A DNA stretch of 64,000 nucleotides from Heteronotia binoei (taxonomy: Eukaryota), in the NCBI RefSeq assembly GCF_032191835.1, contig NC_083223.1, positions 118,730,001-118,794,000 on the forward strand, written 5' to 3'. The notes below the pieces were generated by a model, which was given only the letters and a program-made list of their open reading frames with translations, was not told where the DNA came from and searched no databases. The translations under genes were made by a program, and so were the position numbers. This document shows, piece by piece, positions 1-62,269 of this stretch; the first letter of the stretch is position 1; every line of letters begins with the position of its first letter.

Positions 1-546
1 AGAATTATATTTACCCAAAGCTCACAACTCATCGATCTGTGGCATTTTACCATTATATGTTAAAGAGAACCATTATTTCAACAAATGATCAGATGTGAAC
101 CCTCATCTCAATAATTTACAGGGGACTTTCAGCCTTTACCAGGAAAATCAGGTAAATTCTACATGTTCTTGTACACATTATGATAATTTTAACCTTTTTA
201 AAGCATTCTCACTGAATCCTGAACTGTACACTGAATGCCAAATTTAATAATTTGATAAAGATGGAGACAACTGATCCACACAGACACTAAATGATAGGTA
301 GTAAATACAGGATCCTTGTTGGGTGCAAGTACCAATAGAGTTTGGCTATGCCTTCTATGACTACTAAAAGCTGGGGCAATAGAAACTTAATCTAACTTCT
401 GCCTTTGTGCAGTATTTAAATTATGAATTTTAAAGCTCAATTCAAAATTTGGTGAAATTGATTATTATCTCAAAACCATCCTAATACTAGGGTTTGTAGA
501 ATCTTTCGGGATCAAGTGCCGTGTTCTACTGGAGAAAGTTTTCCTT

Positions 547-587
547 CCAGACGTTTCGTTCTCAGCTGCGGAGAACATCCTCAGTGG
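547..587 (-). ncRNA. Minimal hammerhead ribozyme motif (inverted copy)
   Basis: Reverse complement reads cca-CTGAGGA-t-gttctc/gagaac-GAAA-cg-TC-tgg with a perfect 6-bp stem II. Confidence 0.75.
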
Positions 588-666
588 CGTGGCAGCCGGA
601 GCAGGTGCTCAGACCTTCTTGGCTGCTGTGCATTGAAGGTCTGAGCAGCCTGCTCCGGTTGCAACG

Positions 667-707
667 CCACTGAGGATGTTTTCCGCAGCTGAGAACGAAA
701 CGTCTGG
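667..707 (+). ncRNA. Minimal type-I hammerhead ribozyme motif in PLE pLTR
   Basis: cca-CTGAGGA-t-gttttc/gagaac (stem II)-GAAA-cg-TC-tgg. CUGANGA and GAAA cores are intact, stem I is cca/tgg, helix III is the palindrome ACGU. Confidence 0.75.
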
Positions 708-965
708 AAGGAAAACTTTCTCCAGTAGAACACGGCACTTGATCCCGAAAGATTCTACAAACCCTAATGTTGTTACCAGCCGTGAAAACCTGAAATCTTT
801 GATAACATCCTAATACTATTCTTTCACTCCAGACACTGCAAAGATGGAAATAACAAAGTTCAGCATTTTCGCTAGTTAAAGCAGGGATGCTTGATATTTC
901 TTACTTTAAAATGTGTGCCATTCTACAAAGCTTTACAGTTCTATGGAGCACATTGGGTATTATCC

Positions 966-1043
966 ACCCAAATTTATTTATTTATTTATTACTTTTCATT
1001 TATATCCCGCCCTCTCTGCAAGCGGACTCAGGGCGGCTTACAA
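966..1043 (-). mobile_element. L2-type LINE/SINE 3' tail fragment
   Basis: Reverse complement gtaagccgccctgagtcc...gagggcgggatataaat followed by (taaa)n, the same tail as at 14048 and 58521. Confidence 0.7.
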
Positions 1044-1143
1044 CATTATAAAACAATTAATCTGATAAAACATATAAAACCATAATTTACATATCAACTT
1101 TAAAACCATTCTATAGCGCTATTGGTTCCACTTTGGTTCCACT

Positions 1144-1376
1144 CAGGGCTTTTTTTTAAAGAAAAAGCCCAGCAGAAACTCATTTGCATATCAGGCCACA
1201 TCCCTGATTTCACCATTATTTCACACAGGGCTTTTTTGTAGAAAAAGCCCAACAGGAACTCATTTGCAAACTAGGCCACATCCCCTGATGCCAAGTCAGC
1301 TGGAACTGCGTTCCTGTGCGTTCCTGCTCTCCCCCCCCCCCCCCCCCCAAACAAACAAACAAACAAACAAACCCTG
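1144..1376. mobile_element. hAT-family MITE (cagggctttt... TIR family) carrying octamer motifs
   Basis: TIR-like ends cagggct / accctg and a perfect 8-bp TSD gttccact (1136-1143, 1377-1384). Internal ~80-bp duplication with ctcatttgcat. Confidence 0.85.
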
Positions 1377-1392
1377 GTTCCACTGGTTTCAG

Positions 1393-1876
1393 TAGGATTC
1401 CCAAGTCCAATTCAAGAAATATCTGGGGACTATGGGCGTGGAGCCATGAGACATTGGGGGTGGAGCCATAAGCAGAGTTGTGACAAGCACAATTGAACTC
1501 CAAAGGAAGTTCTGGCCATCACATTTAAGGGGACCATATACCTTTTTAATGCCTTCCCTACATTAGAAATAATGAAGGATAGGGGCACCTTCTTTTGGGG
1601 CTCATAGAATTGGACCCCCTGGTTCAATCTTTTTGAAACATGGAGAGCATTTTGAGGAGACTCAACAGATACTATGCTGAAAATTTGGTACCTCTACCTC
1701 AAAACACTGCCCCTCCAGAGCCCCAGATACCCTGGGATCAATTCTCCATTATACCCTATAGTCCAGCAGACATTTCCCTCCCTTCCCCCCCCCCACCCTG
1801 TTTCTGATGACTCTGAAGCTCTGGAGGGCCTCCAAACCGGGGATCCCCTGCCCCCACCTGGGGATTGGCACCTCTA
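1393..1876. mobile_element. hAT-like MITE (TAGGGTTGCCA-type TIR), decayed
   Basis: Internal sequence matches 44112-44929 in the opposite orientation. Ends are taggattccca and tggcacctcta. Confidence 0.7.
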
Positions 1877-3261
1877 CTCATGAGTTGCTGAACTTTCAAG
1901 TTTTTCACAGTAACACAGGGCAACCAAAGGTTCAAGTTTACCTTCACTATGCAAATGACCTCTATAAGGATTGTGCAAGAAATGGAGGGTCTGGGCTCAT
2001 TTCACAGCCATGTTGTTCTGCCTCTTCTCCCCCCTCCCCTTCAGCCTTAAAGATGCAGACACACCATCCAAAGAGGAAGGCTTTCTCAAGTAGAGATTGA
2101 AGCCTCCAGCGGGGAAAAGAACATGATGGCTGCTGGGGCAGGGAAAAGAACATGATGGCTGCTGGGGCAGGGCTTTCCCCCACCAGCCAGCTGACTGGGG
2201 GTGGGAAGGAGCCTGGGAAAGCAAGAGAACCCCCACTGGGACCTGGGGATTGACAAGCCTAGGCTTCAGTGGTAAACTTAAGCATCTGGTTCTTGCTCCC
2301 CTTTTGAAATCAACTGGTAAGAAATGTACTTAACTTCGATAGAACATAATATATGGCCCAATGAGTGCATACATAATGTAATGCATATGTAATGAAGTGA
2401 TGAGACTCCTATAGCAGTGTATGCACACCCGCTTCCTTAAAATGAGCTCAGGCCACAATCAGTCATTCCAGTTCAAAGCATTTCAGTCAGACTAATGCAG
2501 TATTGGAAGGGTCTATTTAGAGTAGAGAAGCAGCAGGGAGGTGGTGGAAGGAACTCCTTCCTTGACTGCAATTTACTTGCTGCACATCACTCCTTTTCTT
2601 TTTGCCTGTAGCAACCTCAGTTGTGTTTTATCTTGGCTGTGGCTTGCTGGGCCTGGTGCTTGCCTGGCCTGCTGCCCTGTGGAGGAATCAAATGTGTGAG
2701 TCATGGCTGGGGCCATTGCTGGAGTGGAGCTGGGCTTGGGGAGGGGCGCACTCTGCCCCTGTGTCTAGGTGGTGCCCTAGGCTGTGGCCTGCTTGACCTA
2801 CTCTATAGCACTGGCCCAGCATGCAACTTGTTCCTTTTATGGAGAAAGCTGTTTGAAGTAGTGATCTGGAAAGGAAAACTTATGGGAAGGGAAAAGAATA
2901 GGCATTTCTCCCTCTGCTGTTTCTTTATATTGTCCCCTACTGAAGCTTATCCTATATATACACAAAGCAAGCTGTCTTGCTGATGACTCACCTATTCTCG
3001 CATTGACTGAGCTGCATGTCACTCAATCTCCAGGGAGAGCAACTCCACCCTCCAGCCCCAGAACAGACAAGGATTGGGCCACTGGGGAAGCTGCCTTCGT
3101 GTCCTATTGACCAGTCTTGCCAGGTCCTCCATTTTCCCTTATGGCTGTTACTATGCAACCATATTATTTCAACAATGGTTCTGTTAGTAAAGGGTGGTGG
3201 GAATGTCCTTTCCAGGCCTATTTTGGACTTTGAGGGAGAACTCATTAAGACCAATCCTGAC

Positions 3262-3479
3262 CAGGGTTGCCAGCTCCAGTTTGGGAAAATGCTGGAGATT
3301 TTGTGGTGGGGTCTAAGGAAGCCAGAGTTTGGGGAAGGGAGAGGCTTCAGCTGAATATAATGCCATAGAGTCCACTCTCCAAAGCAGTTATTTTCCCCAG
3401 GGGAAAATATATCTGTTGTCTAGAGTTCAGTTGTGATACCAGGAGATCTTCAGGTTCCAGCTGGAGGTTGACTACCCTA
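3262..3479. mobile_element. Short hAT-like MITE (TAGGGTTGCCA-type TIR)
   Basis: Ends cagggttgcca and actacccta, flanks atcctgac / ggcctgac (6/8). Related copies at ~9417-9510, 10100-10222, 33140-33246, 46870-47087 and 47314-47552. Confidence 0.7.
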
Positions 3480-5826
3480 GGCCTGACAGCACCCTCCGGG
3501 TGACTTGATGTCATTAGAGTGGCATGACTTATCTAGACCTGGCTGCTTGCTACTGTTCAGCAGCTGCCCCCTTTTTACACCCAGTGTGGCATAGCAGTTA
3601 GTGTTTCAAAGCAGGGTTTGCCAGACCCATGTTCTTGCTGTGGAAACTGACTGGATAGGCTGATAGTTGACTGGGAAGGAGATAGGGCTGCCAACTCCAC
3701 GTTAGGAAATTCCTGGAGATTTGAGGGATGGAGCCTGGAGACGGTGGGGTTTGAAGAGGGTGGGACCTCAGACAGGTATAATGCAGATATGCTCAAATAC
3801 ACATAGTACCCCAATAAAACTTGATCAGACAATAGGTATTGTACAACTCTCTTCAATAGGAATATTGTCACCTTCTCTCTGGCGAGAACTATGTGTATAA
3901 GGTCTAATTGGCCCTAAGCTAAATATATTAGCATGCATACATAAACAATTTAACTCCTTCTTACACTAAAGGATGAGTGTATCACAATGAACAGCAATTT
4001 TGCACTTTGCAGTATTTTGTAGAGTGTGTTTTCAGTTTCTACTCGCCTGTGATTATTCATGAAATTGATATCAGCAGCAGACATTTCATTTCCTTTAAAT
4101 CACATTTTTTAGTTGCTTGTTTGGGCTCTATGCTTGACTTGGATACTTGACAAAAAGAAGATGATGAGGCTGTGTGGGCAGAGTTACATTCGGTATCAGT
4201 GAATCATGTCCCTTATTCTGCCACTGGTTATTCACATGACTGTTTGATGACTTGATTCTATGGGGAAAGCTAAAAAGTTTTGCATCCAGCACTGGTGACA
4301 GCTTGGTCTTATACATGCAAAGCAGGCTGTGTGAGAAGTTCATCTGTTGCACCTGTTAAACACAGTCTTGAAGGCAAAGGCAAGATGTTGAAACGATCCT
4401 TCATGTCACATACTGGAGCACTTGAAGAATGACTGCATATGCCAGGCTGACTCCAACTTCCCTGATTCCTTGGAGTCTTAGCATGGCTAGAATGTGCAAC
4501 AAGGTAGTGTGGAGGCAAAGCTGGATAGGATGAGCATATGGTTAGAACTGCGCTAGAATTAGACTTGTAGGACAGTGGGGTTTGCTTAATTAATGTGAAT
4601 GTTTGTTTTGTTTACGAAGGGTATTCCCAGTTACACAGATGCACTGAGTAAGGGACTCAAGGCTAATTTTTATAGCAGGAAACAGTAAATGTCAGCCACT
4701 GCTTGATTATAAGCCAGCGACAAAATCTGGCAGATAATCGTGTGATCATTTGCTGCTTCAACTGATCATGTGAATTCTTGGGGAGAGGGATGGTGGAGAT
4801 GGCAAGGATCACCCCAGTGGGACTTTTTCCTGCCATTTTTATGGTCAACATTTCTTCTGAATGCATGCATGGATACGCATACACACACAGTAATTATTTA
4901 TTTAAATAGTTTTATTTTACATTTGTGTAAACTGTAATGACTGCTGCTGACCATACCTTTTATGTTGATTGTGATATTTTTATTGATGGTGTTTTTACTG
5001 TTTTATTTTATTGTCAAGTGCTGCAAGCACATTGTGCAGAGGCAGGATATAAATATTTTAAATAAATAATGTATCAAATAAATCATGGTGGTAAAATCAA
5101 AAATTTTACCATCTCTTGGATATTATCAGTAGGGATCTCTGGCCTATCTGTTGGCAAAGATGAACAAATATGCCCTCTTCCTTTTCATTTTGGTATCTGT
5201 TAATGCCCTTTTATTTGTTTCTTTTACACATTTTGTGTGCATTTGAATACAGCTAGTGTGCACTTTATGCTATATTTAAATGGATAATGCTCAGTTACTC
5301 ATGTGCAAATAATTGAAAAAATATTTTTCTTTTTGTGTGAAAAAAATCAGTTCAAGGAATCAGCAAATGATTTGAAAGTAGGAGCTCCAGTTCAGTCTGT
5401 GCAAGGGAGAAACAAAACCAAAACAAGGATATTCAAACTGAACCAGCAAGCTTGCGAAATTTGATAGCATCCTCAGATCCAAATGGATAGGGCTTTGCTG
5501 TTGCCAAGAGGTTTTCATGTATGACAGCACTATGTTTCCTTTGGCTTATTAAAGGGCAGGAAGAAACAGAAAAAGGTAGGGAATAAGCATTAGAGACAGA
5601 AACAGCAAGCAAGGACAAACTAGGGAACCAACTGGAAACCAAGAAATCAATAAATCAGCTTGTGTTTACTTGTCCTAGCAGCATTGGTGGCAGTGCAATG
5701 GAAAAGGAACACTACTAATGCTCTTCTGCTTTTGCTGGTACTTTTTCCTTCTAGAGGGATCTGCCCAATCCAGAACCACAAAACATGCTTCTGATTGACT
5801 CTTGAGGGTATATTTGTGTATGATGC

Positions 5827-21449: not shown

Positions 21450-22806
21450 ATTGTTGCCCTCTTTAGCAGAATTATAACTTAAGTCCACTGAAGGTATAAA
21501 CTTCCACTGAAGTCAATCAGTGGACTAAGCAAACTGACAAGTGGATTTTGTAGGGTGTAACTCTGCTTAGAATGGCACTGTTAGTTTTGATTTGTAAACA
21601 AACAAATGTAATATATGATCTCTTTTGAACTCAACTACAGCAGAGTATATGAGTGCCAACATAACTATACTTTGCTCAGACTGAATTCAAAAGATAATTT
21701 CTGTTTTAAAGGTTGAATGGCAATGGAACCATTCATATGCTATATTGATCTGACTGGGATTTTTGTCCACAGTTAATGCATCTTAAATCTTCCCAGTACA
21801 TGAATTCCCAATGAATGCTGCACAGGACATTGATCCATCCATGAGCCAAATAATTATCAGATCCTTTTAAAGTATTGTACCTATAAATTGCCAGAAGGCT
21901 GCAGGTGAAGATGTGTAATGTACATTATCTATATCAATATATCTAAATTTATTCTATATAGTCATTGCAGTCCATGACTATCTCTTTTGCTTGCCTTATT
22001 TTTTAAAAAAAAATATTCTTCATATTCTGAAATGGCTTTGCTTAATTTGAAACAGAATGTTTCCAGTTTTTGGAAAACATACAGACATGTCAAGATTCAG
22101 CTAAATCTTTTTATGTATGTGTTGGGAGAATTCCACTATTAGTATCACACTTTCTTCTTCCTATCTTCCTCCATCCTCTGGTATATGACTGTTTTTTGAT
22201 AGATGTACTTTTATTGTCTGCTTCCACACAGTCCAAGTGCTAGTTTTTCAGCACATCACTTCTGCTATGTGGGGAGATCTCTGAAAACATCTGTATTGAA
22301 TTTACTTCACTCTTTATTTCCATTTCCCCTTTTTCTCAACATTATTGGACTTAGTCTAAAATTCATAGGGAAATCTGCTGTCAGTATGAACTTTTACACA
22401 TTCTAACAATTATTGTTCATTTGCACTCATTTATGAAAATGACTCTAGTCAAGGTAAGAAAAAGGGTTTACCTTCTAACACCTTGCTAGATTGTCACACA
22501 TAAAGAGGAGGATTTTGGAAAAGCCAAAAAGGCTAGATAGTGTTTCTTCCTCTTTGGCCAAGAAGACAAGGACAGAAACTGGAGGGGGATGGACTCCCAA
22601 AGGGAGATTATAAATTCTTACAGGACACAAAAAGCACTACTATTCCCTTTATTCATCCATCTCAGATGGGCGCAAACGGTGAAGGATGAACCTTTTACCT
22701 AGGGACTTAATTTTGACCATGTTGAGGGACAATGAAGAGAAACTTTGTACCATTTTGCATTCTAAACCACTGCCCACCGGCTATGTAGCTCTGCGCACTG
22801 TACCTC

Positions 22807-24053
22807 TGTAAGCCAAATTGCCATTGAAGAGAGGTTAGGGAATTTAAGTGGTGGGCAATTATGGCTCAGCGGGATACAGAATCTATGTATACAGGAGATG
22901 ACCTCCAGAACTTCCCTTAGAATAACAAGGGGAGTCTCCAAATAAAATATAAAAATGTTTTATTAGAAAAATAAGTCAAGCATACAAGGGAATATATTCA
23001 TTCAACATATATACAGTTCTAGGAAAAATAGAGGTGAGATTGATAGGGGTCACATATAAGGGATAACACAGACAAGGTGATACTTTACCTCTCGTAGTCT
23101 TCAAGGTGACGCTCCAATAGCGGCGAAAAAGGAAAGGGGGAGCAAGACACGGCCTGCATATCTTACTATTAGGGACCCCAAACTGATCAGGTTTATGGGG
23201 TGAGTCTAACAGCGGAGTAGGTATACTGTCAGATGCACACCTGAGGAACCATGGGTTAGACCTTTTAAGGACTACCCTGTGCCCTCAGGGGGTTGAGGTC
23301 AGATGGTCTATAACACCAGGTCAGGTGGGCTATGATGCTGGAACATGTGGTATGTGACCTCAGAAAAGGGGTGGCTCCAAGGTGACATTTGGAAAATAAC
23401 AGAAGAAGATGGGATTAACTATACTAAACAAAACTTATCTACACTGACAATATAGGGCCGAATTGTTATCTAAAGTGACATCCAACCTACACAATGGTGT
23501 TGGTCTCTGGGTTGGGTTTGGTCTTTGTCTTCTTCCCTTCTCAGCTGGCACAGTCTTTTGTAAGATGTATAGCTTGGAATACCTGGCACATAGAATGTCT
23601 GGCTCTGGATGCACATAGAGATAAGCTTGATGGCTTTATGGAAATGTCCAAATTGCACATTGGGTATATGGGGCTCCTGCTTCGCTCTCATGGCATCTGA
23701 AGATGCAGGGAGATAACCGCTGATGCTGTTAGCCCTTGTAATGGCTTCCATCAGGAAGGCTGAAAACCACATAGCTGGACAGCTCATGGCGGCAGTGCAA
23801 TCTCTTGTCCTGCAAAGCTGGGGACTTACATACGATAGCAGGCTAGAAGTCTTCTTGCCAGGTTTGGGTCTATCCATGGAAGTCCTGCCTTGGTGACCAG
23901 GACCCAGGTAGCCCACATAGGCGTAGTAGCAAGCTGGTAGCATGGCCTATGCCCACGTGTAGATGTGTGCAAGTTGGAACTCCATGCTTTCTGGCACCCA
24001 AGCCAGGAATCATGATGTCTGTACAAACATGAGGGAGGGGACTCTGGCTCACA
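22807..24053 (-). mobile_element. Solo LTR (1247 bp) of an unclassified LTR retroelement or ERV, with a decayed ORF in U3
   Basis: TG...CA ends with inverted termini tgtaagcca / tggctcaca and 4-bp TSD cctc (22803-22806, 24054-24057). On the minus strand: TATA-like 23263-23269, donor 23083-23088, AATAAA 22959-22964. Homologous along its length to 60918-62256. Confidence 0.85.
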
Positions 24054-24799
24054 CCTCATTCCTTGTATAATATAGTGGGTTCTATGCAATGATGAGGCGA
24101 GGTGATAGTGAACATAGCTCTTTTATTGAATACAACATGGTATAGTGCTACCTAAGAAGACTGGAGACTAGGACTGCAGGGTCAACTATAAACACACCCA
24201 AAGTTCCCGGGCTGCCTGTGATTGGACCATTCAAACCAGTCTTGATTGGAGCAGGGCAGCAGGAATTTGGATTCTACTGCCTATTGTTCCTGAGACCCCA
24301 AGCTCAGTCCTTCAGGCCCCAGTGAGCCAAGAGAGAACTCCAGCTTATAGATACAATTCTAAGCACATATACAACATCCCTTCCCCCCATGTTCGCAAGC
24401 CTAGCTGACGTAGTTGAGGTAGGCTGGCTTGCAATGCTCTCTGGTGGATTGCCTGAGCACTGGAGTGGGTGGCGGAGCAGATGCAGTTGCCACGGCAGTG
24501 AGTGGAGGAGCCACCGCTGTATTGCTTTCAGCCAGCGGCTCCTGGGTCTCCGTGACTGCTGGCTCTACCTGAAGGGCGGGGCCCTGGGCTTCTGCCTCAG
24601 CCATGGCCATCGGGGAAGGAGTGGGGGTGGCGGCCTGGTCATCAGGACTGTAGCCCTCAACTTCTTCCTTGGGGCTCTCGCAGGACCTCAGCTGGTCGAT
24701 GTGCCTCCCTATAGTGGACCCCCCTCTGTTGTAACCTCATACACCATGGACCCCAGCAACCTTTGCCAGAATCCAAGCGCCCCCCCCCCCCAGTTCTTA

Positions 24800-27338
24800 G
24801 CCATAACTCAGTCCCCTGTGTCTAACCCCCGAGGTGCCCGGACCACCTCTGGATCCTCTTGCAGATCGAAGGCTCTGTCTGGATGTAATCGGTCTAGTAG
24901 GATGGTTAACCGCAGCTGGGCTGCGGCCGGTGGCAATAGAGGGGATAGTATGCTGCGATAATAAGAACTCTGCAAGGCGGGCCTCCCAGTCCCCCTGGAT
25001 GATGCAGTGGAGCAATTCTTTAGTCGTCCACACCATCCTTTCAGCCTGGCCGTTGGTGGCCGGATGGAAGGGGGCTGACCTGATATGCCAAATGAGGTTC
25101 TGGATGCAGAAGAAGAAGAAGAAGAAGATGATGATGATATTGGATTTATATCCCGCCCTCCACTCCGAAGAGTCTCAGAGTGGCTCACAATCTCCTTTAC
25201 CTTCCTCCCCCACAACAAACACCCTGTGAGGTGGGTGGGGCTGAGAGGGTTCTCACAGCAGCTGCCCTTTCAAGGACAACCTCTGCCAGAGCTATGGCTG
25301 ACCCAAGGCCATGCCAGCAGGTGCAAGTGGAGGAGTGGGGAATCAAACCTGGTTCTCCCAGATAAGAGTCCGGACACTTAACCACTACACCAAACTGGCT
25401 CTCTAGAAGTCCTGGAACTCCCCCAACGTGAAGGCCGTCCTGTTATCCGAAACCAGTGTGTCTGGGAGGCCATGCGTGGTGAACACCCAGTGGAGGTCGC
25501 TGATGGTGGTCCAGGAGGAGGTGGAAGTGATCAGAAGCACCTCCAGCCATTTTGAGTGCGAGCCCACTCAAAAAGAACGTTTGTCCCTGGAAGGGCCCCA
25601 CAAAGTCCAGGTGCAAGCGGGACCAGGGATTTCGTGTGAACTCCCAGTGCTGCATTGGGGCCTGGGGAGGCGCCAGCCATGTCTCCTGGCAGGGCTGGCA
25701 TCAGGTGACCCAAGACTCGATCACATCGTCAATCCTGGGCCGCCATACATAACTGCGGGTGAATGCCTTCATGCGCACGATCCCCGGGTGGGTTTCATGC
25801 AGCGCCATGAGGACTTGGTGTCTCAAAACCAGGGGCACCACCACCCTGTTACCCCATAACAAACACCCCTTATGGGTAGAAAGCTCGTCCCCGCGGGACA
25901 CGAACACCCCAAACTCTGGTCCCACCCAGCCTGTGGGCCATCCCCTCCACACCCAGTTCAAAACTCGGGAGAGTATTTTGTCCTTGGCTGAGCAACGTGC
26001 AATGTCCTTCGCGTGAACTGGGTGGTCTGGAAGGGACTCCAGAAGCAGGATCTGGTGTGCTGGGGCAGGATCTGGCTTGTCCGATGGCACTGGCAGACGG
26101 CTGAGTGTGTCCACGTGGCCCATGGCTTTCCCAGACTTGTACTGAAGACTATACTGGTACCCAGCCAAGAAAATAGACCACCGCAGTACCCTGGGCAACA
26201 GCATCTGGGGCGTTTGTTGGTCGAGGGCAAAGAGGCCAAGTAAGGCCTTGTGGTCCGTAAGGATGGTGAAGGGCCAGCTGTACAAGTAATCGTGGATTTT
26301 TTTAACTCCCGCCACGATTGCCAGGCCCTCCTTATTGATTTGGCATAGCTGCGCTCCAATTTCTGCAATGTTCTGGAGTAATAGGCTACCAGGACCTCTC
26401 TGCCATGCAGCAACACAGGGGATGAGTGTAGTCTCGGTTCCCCCTTGGGGCAAAGTTTCTTAAGGTTCTGGGCAGAGATAATGGTGTGTGTGGCCCCAGA
26501 GTCAATCTCCATTCGACAGGGGGCGCCCTCAAAAAACACTGTTGTTTTGAGTTTATCTGGGGACGGCATGGTGATGTCGCATACCTGTCCGACCGATGCG
26601 GTGATGGCGTTGATATTCTCCATGACGGCGACCTCATGGCAGCAGCCATGTTTTCCGCTCTTCTGACGGGTGGTGCTCTCTTGGGTTGGTGTCGCTTTAG
26701 AGCGGCAGACTCTGGCGAGGTGACCCGTCTTTCTGCACTGGTGGCAGACGGTGTCCCAGAATCGGCAGGAGCGGCACTCGTGGTTCTCCCCACAACTTGC
26801 ACACTCCCAAGCTGGTGCGGTTTCAGTCATGCAAGGCGGCTGGCACTTCGCGGCGGTGTGGTGGAATTTGAAAGCATCATCGACCCCTGAGTCGTCCGCT
26901 TCCAAGGAGGATGAGGCGGCTTGGTGGGCCACCACCAACATGCGCTCTTTCCACGATTTTCATAGGCAAAAGCCTCTTTGATCGCCATGGTGAGGTCCAT
27001 ATAATCTTTTCCACGGCAGACTCATTGGACCACTGACGGCACTTGGAGAAGTCAAAGCAACGGGTCAGGACTGATGGCTGCGGTGTAAAATGGGTCATAA
27101 GGGTGGCAGTGATTTCTGCGACGAAGGCATCCTTGAGGAGGGTGGGCGCCATTAGCCCCTGGGCTAGCTCCTGGGTGTCCATCCTGCACGAGCTGAGGAG
27201 TTGCAATTTCTTTTTATTCCCCAAAACCCCGTGGTAGTGGATGAAGTTCTCCAGTCGTTCCAACCAGGTCTCCCATTGCTTTGGGCTGGTCACATCGAAC
27301 TCGGGAATTGCTCCTGGCATAGCGGCCATTGTCAGCAC
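24800..27338 (-). pseudogene. Gypsy gag-pro-(RT deleted)-RNaseH-integrase, frameshifted
   Basis: gag WETWLERLE; knuckle CHQCRKTGHLARVC; protease EIDSGA; RNase H AYYSRTL/KEGLAIV/TDHKAL/DTLSRLP; integrase HPGIVRMK, LHLDFVGP, VSDNG, FHPATNGQAERMV. Confidence 0.88.
25108..25403 (-). mobile_element. Squam3-like SINE inserted in the Gypsy integrase
   Basis: Full head-to-tail copy with a (ttc/tca)n tail. agaag is duplicated at 25108-25112 and 25405-25409. The integrase frame rejoins as GEFQDF-CIQNLIWHIRSAPFHP. Confidence 0.9.
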
Positions 27339-27381
27339 TGGCAGTGCAGAAAACCCATGGCTGCTGGCCTCGCTTACCAGG

Positions 27382-27399
27382 ATTCCACCTTCGCCGCCA
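27382..27399 (-). promoter_or_regulatory. Primer-binding site, tRNA-Ser(GCU)-like
   Basis: tggcggcgaaggtggaat lies 1 nt after the 5' LTR and matches the complement of the vertebrate tRNA-Ser(GCU) 3' end (TGGCGACGAGG(A/G)TGGGAT) at 14-15 of 18 positions. Confidence 0.65.
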
Positions 27400-27718
27400 C
27401 TATATTATAGTGGGTTCTATGCAATGATGAGGCGAGGTGATAGTGAACATAGCTTTTTATTGAATACAGCATGGTATAGTGCTGCCTAAGAAGACTGAAG
27501 ACTAGGGCTGCAGGGGCAACTATATACACACCCAAAGTTCCCGCACTGCCTGTGATTGGACCATTCAAACCAGCTGGGGGCTCTTGATTGGAAGAGGGAA
27601 GCAGAAATTTGGATCCTACTGCCTATTGTTCCTGAGTCCCCAAGCTCAGTCTTTCAGGCCCCAATGAGCCAAGCAAGAACTCCAGCTTATAGATACAATT
27701 CTAAGCACATATACAACA

Positions 27719-60852: not shown

Positions 60853-60917
60853 CTACTAAAGGACTGCTGCTTTGAAGGTCTGGTGGGAGCAGCTGCAGCT
60901 TTGAGAGGCAGGGGTGG

Positions 60918-62256
60918 TGTGAGAAAAATACCCCTAATTTCAGAACATCGTAGTCACCCGTTTGGTTGCCAGGTACCTGGAGAATTCACTCACACACATC
61001 TGCCAGGAGAACTTGGGTTTTGTCTACCAGAATGTAAGGGACTTATGTGAGTACTAACAGCCACAACGTTGCAGCAGCACTTGGTATCTCTAGAAGAGTG
61101 CTAACCAGGAGGACAGATGGGTTTCCAGCCGCTCCGTGCGTGCACCATCTTGGCCGTTGCAGTGGAAGAAGTTGTGCCGCCAGGAACTGTCGGGCAAGTG
61201 GATTCCAGCCTTGGCCATAGAATCCATATTGGTAGGCTAACATCATCAGCAACTATCTTCCTGCAGTGCCAGACTCCATGACAGCGAAGCGGGAGGCTCA
61301 CGTACTCAACAGATGTCACCTATGCATTAGGCAATCAAGCTTATCTTAGGCGTGGATCCTGTCAGACTGTCTAAAGCCTTTGTCCAACAGAACACAAGAT
61401 AAAGGATGGTGCCAGTAGAGGAATGAAGAAGAGGAAGAACATCTTCATCCACAGCCAAGCTTCTTTGTATAGATCGTGTGTTACCTTAGGTAGTAGTTTG
61501 GCCATCTATTGTCACTTTTTAGATAAGTTTTGATAGCCTTTTAATCACTTCTACCCCAATAATTTCACCCATTCTTTCCCTTAATGGTCTTCCTGGAGCC
61601 TCCCCCTTTTGGCCCATTGTTACCTGGAAGTCCAATCAAGTAACCAGGGCCAGGTCTGCTCATTGGCCAGGAATGGGCATCCAATCAGGTGCCCCCAATA
61701 AACTGGCCATTGGCTACCGCACAAGTCCAGCCCTTATGATCATTGTGGAGCCTCCCCTTTTTCTGAGGTCATGTACCAGCTGACCACCTGTCATCCGCCC
61801 CTGTACCGCCTACCCCCTAAGGGCTCAAGGTAGCCCTTATAACCACAGTCCCAACTCCCCACAGTTGCGCATCTAGCAGTACTGTTTAGATACATCCCCG
61901 ATTCTTGGCCAGTTGAGGGTTCCCTTCCCCATAGTCCTTGTTTGTCGCCATTGGAGCCTTCCTTGAAGACTACGATCGGTAATTATCACCTTGTTTGTCC
62001 ATCCTTATGTTACCTCTATGCATTTCTCTCTATTTTTATTAGAACTGTATGTGTGTTGTATGTATCCATTACCTTGCATGTGTGTTCAATAATTTCTGTA
62101 ATAAATGTGTATTGTTTTACTTAATTAGTGTCCTTGGTAAATTTAGCAATAATTTCTGGAAGTGGAATCCTGTATACATAGATTCTAGGTCCTTTTAAAG
62201 CCAAAGTTGCCCACCTGTCAATTCCCCAACCTCTATTGAGGGCATCTTGGCTTACA
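60918..62256 (+). mobile_element. Solo LTR (1339 bp), same family as 22807-24053
   Basis: tgtgag...gcttaca ends with 4-bp TSD gtgg (60914-60917, 62257-62260). CCAAT boxes ~61630-61715, cttataa 61836-61842, donor g|gtaatt at 61979, AATAAA 62100-62105. Identical blocks with the other copy: atcaagcttatct, ccttgaagactacga, cctgtatacatagattct. Confidence 0.85.
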
Positions 62257-62269
62257 GTGGCAGTGGGGG

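Follow-up and report, generated by a model that had tools for sequence, protein, structure and literature searches.

The chicken locus Ovex1 is described as a single co-opted retroviral copy with neither full LTRs nor a primer-binding site (PBS) and with damaged RT and IN active sites (PMC2717909). The crocodilian elements CrocERV37, CrocERV38, and CrocERV39 (ERV-3_AMi, ERV-5_Ami, and ERV-1_Crp in Repbase, respectively) have been placed with Ovex1 and SpeV in an unclassified lineage, reported there as absent from mammals (PMC4299795). Knowledge of the lineage has come mainly from a single co-opted bird gene that lacks LTRs and from a few crocodilian copies. Our literature search retrieved no description of a gecko or lizard family of the Ovex1 type; such sequences are probably present, without a name, in large RT screens.

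The window analyzed here, a stretch of 64,000 nucleotides of the genome of the gecko Heteronotia binoei, contains two LTRs that are very probably solo LTRs of an abundant endogenous retrovirus (ERV) family of the Ovex1/SpeV/CrocERV37-39 lineage, their solo state presumably having been left by LTR-LTR recombination. Where a sequence-only reading had proposed an undescribed spuma-like or other complex ERV lineage, the affiliation with another ERV lineage has held, but that lineage is already described; the family is a new, abundant member of a known, poorly described lineage, for which it supplies full LTRs, a PBS, a polypurine tract (PPT), and a gene order read from many copies. The likeness to Ovex1, as the latter is described in PMC2717909, comprises an Env homolog, Pol motifs, a coiled-coil Gag without a zinc finger, an amber codon in frame with Pro-Pol, a splice donor in an R-like repeat, and an env located right after the acceptor. 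In contrast to Ovex1, the gecko family has full LTRs of 1.2-1.35 kb, a tRNA-Ala PBS, an RT with a YVDD active site, and very many copies, those seen being all broken. The three CrocERV elements resemble it by the presence of env and their clustering with Ovex1, CrocERV37 and CrocERV39 also by their 4-bp target site duplications (TSDs) (PMC4299795), CrocERV37 further by an Ala-like PBS (supplement of PMC4299795), and CrocERV39 by Pol and Env translations that look similar by eye (PMC4299795). The three elements as listed there differ in their crocodilian hosts, in their one or two copies each, and in their length of 9.3-10.8 kb, against about 15 kb for the full gecko element, a figure summed from parts measured in different broken copies; CrocERV38 differs further by a 5-bp TSD.

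The Two Solo LTRs and Their Family

Copy A spans positions 60918..62256 of the plus strand (1339 bp) and copy B positions 22807..24053 of the minus strand (1247 bp). At these coordinates the sequence-only reading had recognized two LTRs with TG...CA ends and a 4-bp TSD each, and the duplications are exact: GTGG for copy A, at 60914..60917 on the left and 62257..62260 on the right, and GAGG for copy B, at 24054..24057 upstream and 22803..22806 downstream, on the minus strand. Its series of signals was also recovered in both copies, namely a TATA-like box, the block ccttgaagactacga joined to a G|GTAA donor, and AATAAA about 120 nt further on. In copy A, the TATA-like box (TATAA, 61838..61842), each position of which is conserved in 20-21 of 21 A copies, predicts the start site, and the U3/R border should lie about 30 nt downstream of it; the conserved purine-rich block with the predicted major splice donor in R follows at 61962..61984 (GT at 61979), and the AATAAA poly(A) signal at 62100..62105, 121 nt past the donor. 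The corresponding minus-strand features of copy B are a TTAAAA box at 23263..23268, the block and predicted donor at 23083..23105 (GT at 23088), and AATAAA at 22959..22964, 124 nt past the donor. The estimate that the two copies are roughly 70% identical fits only two BLASTN blocks, one of 334 nt (71%) and one of 371 nt (67%), and identity drops to 62% over 1159 aligned columns. A Gypsy-like LTR element occupies positions 24066-27718 of the minus strand, its end lying 12 nt from solo LTR B; its LTRs of about 310 bp are 91% alike, and it retains a zinc-knuckle gag and remnants of RNase H and integrase.

Both LTRs are repeated in the genome. Of 5273 first-look candidates, 40 were scored for copy A, which is 89-93% identical to 39 others, and 40 of 3744 for copy B, which shows 77-86% identity to the others; these candidate totals are not copy numbers, and the scored matches are almost all long. 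Because most of these matches are both long and of high identity, the two repeats do not reflect chance similarity. On sequence comparison, the subgroup of copy A is the younger and that of copy B the older. Among ten A loci, seven have an exact 4-bp TSD and one more has a TSD with a mutated end, the remaining two being a 3' LTR with a PPT and a locus without TSD. For copy B, 30 loci were fetched, and of the 19 that align from one end to the other, 18 are bordered by a 4-bp TSD with at most one mismatch (exact in 13).

Examination of the stretches upstream of 11 internal copies, most of which have no 5' LTR within 7 kb, yielded one two-ended provirus with a TSD and one further copy with two LTRs. 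The former (C21:71921029-71935194) has both ends, a CCCC duplication on each side, and an internal deletion. The two LTRs of a pair diverge by a K2P distance of 0.073 (423 nt) in this provirus and of 0.072 (369 nt) in the second copy, which, at an uncalibrated substitution rate near 2e-9 per site per year, corresponds to an age in the order of 15-20 million years. No intact element was found among the copies seen, each of them being broken by stops, frameshifts, deletions, or insertions. Short derivatives also occur, one of which keeps just the start of gag and the post-env region, with about 5.2 kb inside; in a derivative of this kind at locus L163 (G000:C7:70.165-70.172 Mb), the 3' LTR is reduced to less than 80 nt through an internal deletion. 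A search for B-type proviruses found none: a pattern built on B-type ends gave ten matches, of which five had a PBS junction with LTRs that were not B-type, and a PPT pattern was discarded since its 56,451 matches were swamped by an abundant unrelated repeat. Subgroup B is therefore linked to the family via LTR homology only.

Internal Organization and Relationships

The architecture of the family was read from the internal copies L041-L060, reached via a 3' LTR copy bearing a PPT. The genes are ordered gag, in-frame amber stop, PR-RT-tether-RNase H-IN, and env, followed by about 3 kb of sequence and the PPT. The tether is RNase H-like and a second, retroviral RNase H is also present; together with env, this dual RNase H supports the view that the window copies are solo LTRs of a retrovirus. 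Gag has an N-terminal coiled-coil-like part, recognized from its sequence and from weak Pfam hits, and no CCHC knuckle, and it terminates in a TAG codon in frame with the protease in all three copies read. Env carries a basic cleavage site and a transmembrane (TM) anchor. The region downstream of env, closed by the G-rich PPT, measures 2.9-3.2 kb and is 83-92% alike among the stretches sharing it, at least 10 of 20, which indicates that it belongs to the element.

A pattern joining the LTR end to the PBS gave 160 matches, against 10 for its control. The PBS begins after a 5-nt spacer and matches tRNA-Ala(AGC) in 19 of the 30 loci fetched, over all 18 nt in three of these 19 and with variants after base 10 in the others; a preliminary guess with a spacer of 0-4 nt had given eight matches, none of which was a PBS. 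The tRNA-Ala(AGC) genes of the host end in sequence complementary to the PBS, and a pattern search for a tRNA gene fitting the variant shared by the L117-L143 junctions found none.

Placement in the Ovex1 lineage relies on both Env and Pol. In the Env search from the relative P0121, the best named hit was P0234, the 873-aa chicken protein LOC422926 (E 4.7e-92), to which two natural env frames of the family are 33-34% identical; this protein is identified as Ovex1 ORF3 in PMC2717909. Pol is 47% (RT-tether) and 45% (IN) identical to the ostrich sequence P0139, which contains the Ovex1 motifs WFVDGSN and WMGPVR and owes its Ovex1-type label to these motifs only, and 66% identical to the ERV P0141 of the turtle Pelodiscus. 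The closest sequences are turtle ERVs (P0141 and P0004 from Pelodiscus, P0144 from Pelusios) and the records P0001, P0002, and P0121, with identities of 44-77% in Pol and up to 54% in Env. In the RT tree, three copies of the family group with ostrich P0139, Ovex1-type by its motifs, and with the turtle ERVs (SH-aLRT 99), on a branch apart from the Gypsy rows and from those class I ERVs of the genome that are linked to Gag_p30. This tree, computed by the quick method of IQ-TREE, has 60 rows and does not include foamy, SnRV, ERV-L, SpeV, CrocERV, or chicken Ovex1 sequences; copies without a long enough RT frame and the near-duplicates P0122-P0138 were left out, and of the Gypsy-type hits only 14 were retained, P0143 being a further row that fell with them. 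No named exogenous retrovirus was among the matches of three protein searches, and a scan of viral contigs with the RT frame found no relative. The snakehead retrovirus resembles the family by its coiled-coil Gag and amber read-through (PMC2717909) and by extra sequence after env, and differs from it, by its description, in a 518-bp LTR, a Gag zinc finger, and defined accessory ORFs (PMC12193657, PMC2717909). Pol-like proteins of birds belonging to many orders (P0009-P0028) form a tight clade that also groups with the family and is separate from ostrich P0139; it may represent another co-opted gene of the lineage.

Coding Capacity of U3 and of the Post-env Region

The first 580 nt or so of both LTRs had been read as coding, in the manner of a bel2/bet-like ORF running into U3. 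We searched for such a signal with env as a control, whose TM part gave a pN/pS of 0.25-0.35 (p 0.003) and whose stop shares were 0.2-0.6% in all four env windows. The U3 of copy A behaves as noncoding, since its longest plus-strand stop-free stretch is 60 codons, against 73 in shuffled sequences, and subgroup A as a whole has no codon signal and a longest shared plus-strand frame of 74 codons. Furthermore, env is separated from the 3' LTR by the 3-kb region, and no frame is open over more than 53 codons upstream of the PPT/U3 junction in any of the 14 A-type 3' ends (out of 20) in which this junction could be located, so that the bel2/bet-like ORF is not supported. The coding impression persists, weakly, for copy B, in which a frame of 158 codons is open from stop to stop at 23470..23946 (minus strand), a candidate for a small U3 gene. 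B-type LTRs share 144 codons of this U3 frame. Stops amount to 0.9% in it, against 3.2% under the null (p 0.006, for a region chosen after seeing the ORFs), and pN/pS is 0.60 (p 0.11), or 0.55 in the first half (p 0.026), a pattern that the SU part of env reproduces. The comparisons of B with A and of B with C give no pN/pS signal. Outside subgroup B, the frame is interrupted by stops common to A copies, reduced to fragments in C, and of lesser length in E; Pfam has no hit for it, and the Atlas none that is usable. The 144-codon ORF is thus a weak lead to an accessory gene. In the post-env region, where the longest shared frames are 162 and 132 codons, one window is low in stops (1.7%, p 0.017) and two overlapping windows show weak periodicity (p 0.012-0.024), but none has the signature of env TM and no convincing gene emerges. 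All p-values for U3 and the post-env region are uncorrected over about 20 tests, on regions picked after seeing the ORFs.

These data bear on whether the family descends from a complex retrovirus of the Ovex1 lineage, in which the 3 kb after env, U3, or both once coded for accessory proteins that have since decayed or evolve too fast to be recognized. Such a history would be in keeping with the preservation of the post-env region among the stretches that share it, with the stop deficit of the B-type U3 frame, and with the low-stop post-env window. However, the post hoc choice of regions and the uncorrected p-values, a U3 frame that is not whole in A, C, or E, the negative comparisons of B with A and C, the lack of Pfam or Atlas hits for that frame, and the weak periodicity after env all weigh against it, and we consider it a tentative possibility, with the odds clearly against it.

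Rival Affiliations and the Predicted Splice Donor in R

The sequence-only reading had offered a Gypsy or epsilon-like element with long LTRs as its alternative. An ordinary Gypsy element is excluded by the combination of a tether, a retroviral RNase H, and an env. A class I (gamma/epsilon) ERV with long LTRs would account for the 4-bp TSD and the amber read-through, which are both class I traits, for the MLV RT being the best PDB hit, and for the Env proteins of WEHV and WDSV occupying ranks 2 and 3 in the viral fold search described below. Nevertheless, the three Gag frames of the family have no Gag_p30 hit and no zinc knuckle, and the class I RTs of the genome are only 34-35% identical to the RT core of P0001 and form a separate branch in the tree, which makes a Gypsy or class I origin very unlikely. 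Many Gag_p30 (class I ERV) loci of this genome (154 matches, 150 candidates scored) retain frames open over about 700 aa, which points to a young gamma-like family beside the one described here.

The fold of Env brings in the lokiretroviruses, whose Env is reported to be related to the F proteins of paramyxo- and pneumoviruses (PMC7947760). The Env of P0121, a 54%-identical relative, was modeled with a pLDDT of 66 and a pTM of 0.38. Among the PDB matches listed by Foldseek for this model, ranks 1-42 are paramyxovirus or pneumovirus F proteins (best E 2.8e-7), with low TM-scores of 0.14-0.21. In BFVD, an unnamed 928-aa target precedes the Env proteins of WEHV and WDSV, F-type glycoproteins are also found, and the feline foamy Env is at rank 26; the Atlas search weakly agrees with an F-like Env. 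At the sequence level, Env had no match in the PDB, with either single sequences or profiles, and PF00523 had no hit in the 57 Env relatives. Env would thus be a class I fusion protein with a paramyxovirus-F-like fold, and, as far as the model can be trusted, this supports the view that ORF3 of Ovex1 is a real envelope, an identity that its describers doubted (PMC2717909). Since the published lokiretroviruses also have an F-like Env (PMC7947760), the fold by itself does not define the lineage.

Besides the F-like Env with its basic cleavage site, a lokiretrovirus would share with the family the dual RNase H (PMC7947760) and a coiled-coil region, and many of our protein hits are named NYNRIN-like. 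In contrast, the RT of lokiretroviruses is described as sister to those of all other retroviruses and their reptile copies as highly degraded (PMC7947760), whereas the gecko RT joins the Ovex1-type and turtle sequences, with a support of 99, on the class I ERV side of the tree. The only row that we take to be Loki-like, from its motif, is P0023, which is 33% identical and falls towards Gypsy, and the Env of the family resembles Ovex1 ORF3 much more closely than it does any F protein. Membership in the lokiretroviruses is accordingly a shade less probable even than a Gypsy or class I origin. P0316, a hypothetical protein of 928 aa from Bufonid herpesvirus 1, shows homology to the Env family (E 3e-13 from P0121); this similarity suggests that an amphibian herpesvirus may have captured an env of the Ovex1 type.

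Least probable of all is a divergent endogenous foamy virus (EFV) with a Tas/Bet-like ORF entering U3, given a tRNA-Ala PBS instead of Lys1,2, Gag-TAG-Pol in what reads as a single frame instead of a separately spliced Pol, and an Env without any foamy Env match. Foamy viruses, as described, use a Lys1,2 PBS, express Pol from its own spliced mRNA, and have an internal promoter with Tas/Bet (PMC5035957). What they have in common with the gecko family, PFV and the gecko and tuatara EFVs included, is a long LTR (more than 1.2 kb here), with a 4-bp TSD and a donor that precedes the poly(A) signal (PMC3694450), a Gag without zinc knuckle, and some similarity in IN, for which foamy IN is the best match among solved structures (106 bits, vs. 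77 for Ty3), the 60 matches listed including neither a gamma nor an epsilon IN. In the viral fold search of the relative P0001, the equine foamy Pol comes second, with 23% identity, alongside WDSV with 26%. Such IN and fold-search results fit a third lineage roughly equidistant from both groups. Against a foamy affiliation, RT-tether scores 167-175 bits with MLV/XMRV and 139-150 with foamy Pol in the PDB. The foamy-specific Pfam families (Env, Gag, and A9 protease) are hit by none of 11 family proteins, nor foamy Pfam by any of the 57 Env relatives, although PF03408 does detect a true foamy env of 982 aa in the gecko genome, with which the family Env is not alignable (hhalign probability 0.2%, blastp E no better than 0.5). 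A-type ends show no ORF running into U3; as a tuatara EFV is described without accessory genes (PMC6669660), their absence alone does not exclude a foamy virus. Considering the PBS, the Gag-Pol frame, and Env, the family is not a spumavirus.

For the Ovex1-type family, we propose that U3 would drive transcription from about 30 nt past the TATA box and that read-through at the amber codon would yield Gag-Pol, a mechanism also proposed for Ovex1, SnRV, and gamma/epsilon viruses. The donor, which lies 110-150 nt into R, would join the first exon to an acceptor just before env, comparable to the Ovex1 RACE product; pyrimidine-rich acceptor-like sites directly before env were found by pattern in two of nine copies. 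The predicted position of a splice donor in a long R was borne out by its motif, which is conserved in all five LTR subgroups examined: GTAA is kept in 20-21 of 21 copies of A, in all 8 mixed C copies, and in 13-15 of 16 copies of B, and GGTA also occurs in subgroups D and E. The donors agree with the U1 consensus at just 5-7 of 9 positions, and a leader donor with at least 7 of 9, common to most copies, was not found among the 17 copies scanned.

A donor in R has been called unique to foamy viruses, in which U1-dependent suppression of the 5' poly(A) site was demonstrated (PMC3694450). In chicken Ovex1, the RACE-mapped intron spans 97-5766 and the R-like repeat extends from -6 to +114 (PMC2717909), so that its donor also lies in R. 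Because the donor is found in all five gecko subgroups and in the repeat of Ovex1, the layout is probably a trait of the lineage rather than a foamy marker. This suggests that a feature described as foamy-only also occurs in a non-foamy lineage, in which case a long LTR, a 4-bp TSD, and a donor in R do not together diagnose a spumavirus. Given that AATAAA follows the donor by about 120 nt in both LTRs, we lean, by analogy with foamy viruses, towards U1 snRNP bound to this donor suppressing premature polyadenylation in the 5' LTR. The family would then probably combine an orthoretrovirus-like expression of Gag-Pol with a foamy-like control of splicing and polyadenylation in R. More speculative still than the lost accessory genes considered above, and in our estimation rather doubtful, is that the Ovex1 lineage constitutes a deep branch of complex retroviruses of about 15 kb, with read-through Gag-Pol, a U1-dependent R donor, an F-like Env, and an as yet undescribed accessory protein encoded in U3 (best preserved in B-type LTRs), in the post-env region, or in both. 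If so, the R-donor layout and the F-type Env would be ancestral in non-class-I/II retroviruses and not foamy specialities.

The window copies themselves would be inert, unless their promoter, donor, or poly(A) signal acts on host transcripts, and many solo LTRs carrying these three signals could influence such transcripts as well. As for the true foamy env of this genome, no Pol match was found near its loci; it is unbroken at L061:250-3195 (G000:C18, about 2.50 Mb), where PF03408 scores 344 and 206 bits, it has a second copy on C232, and it resembles the co-opted foamy env described in geckos (PMC6669660).
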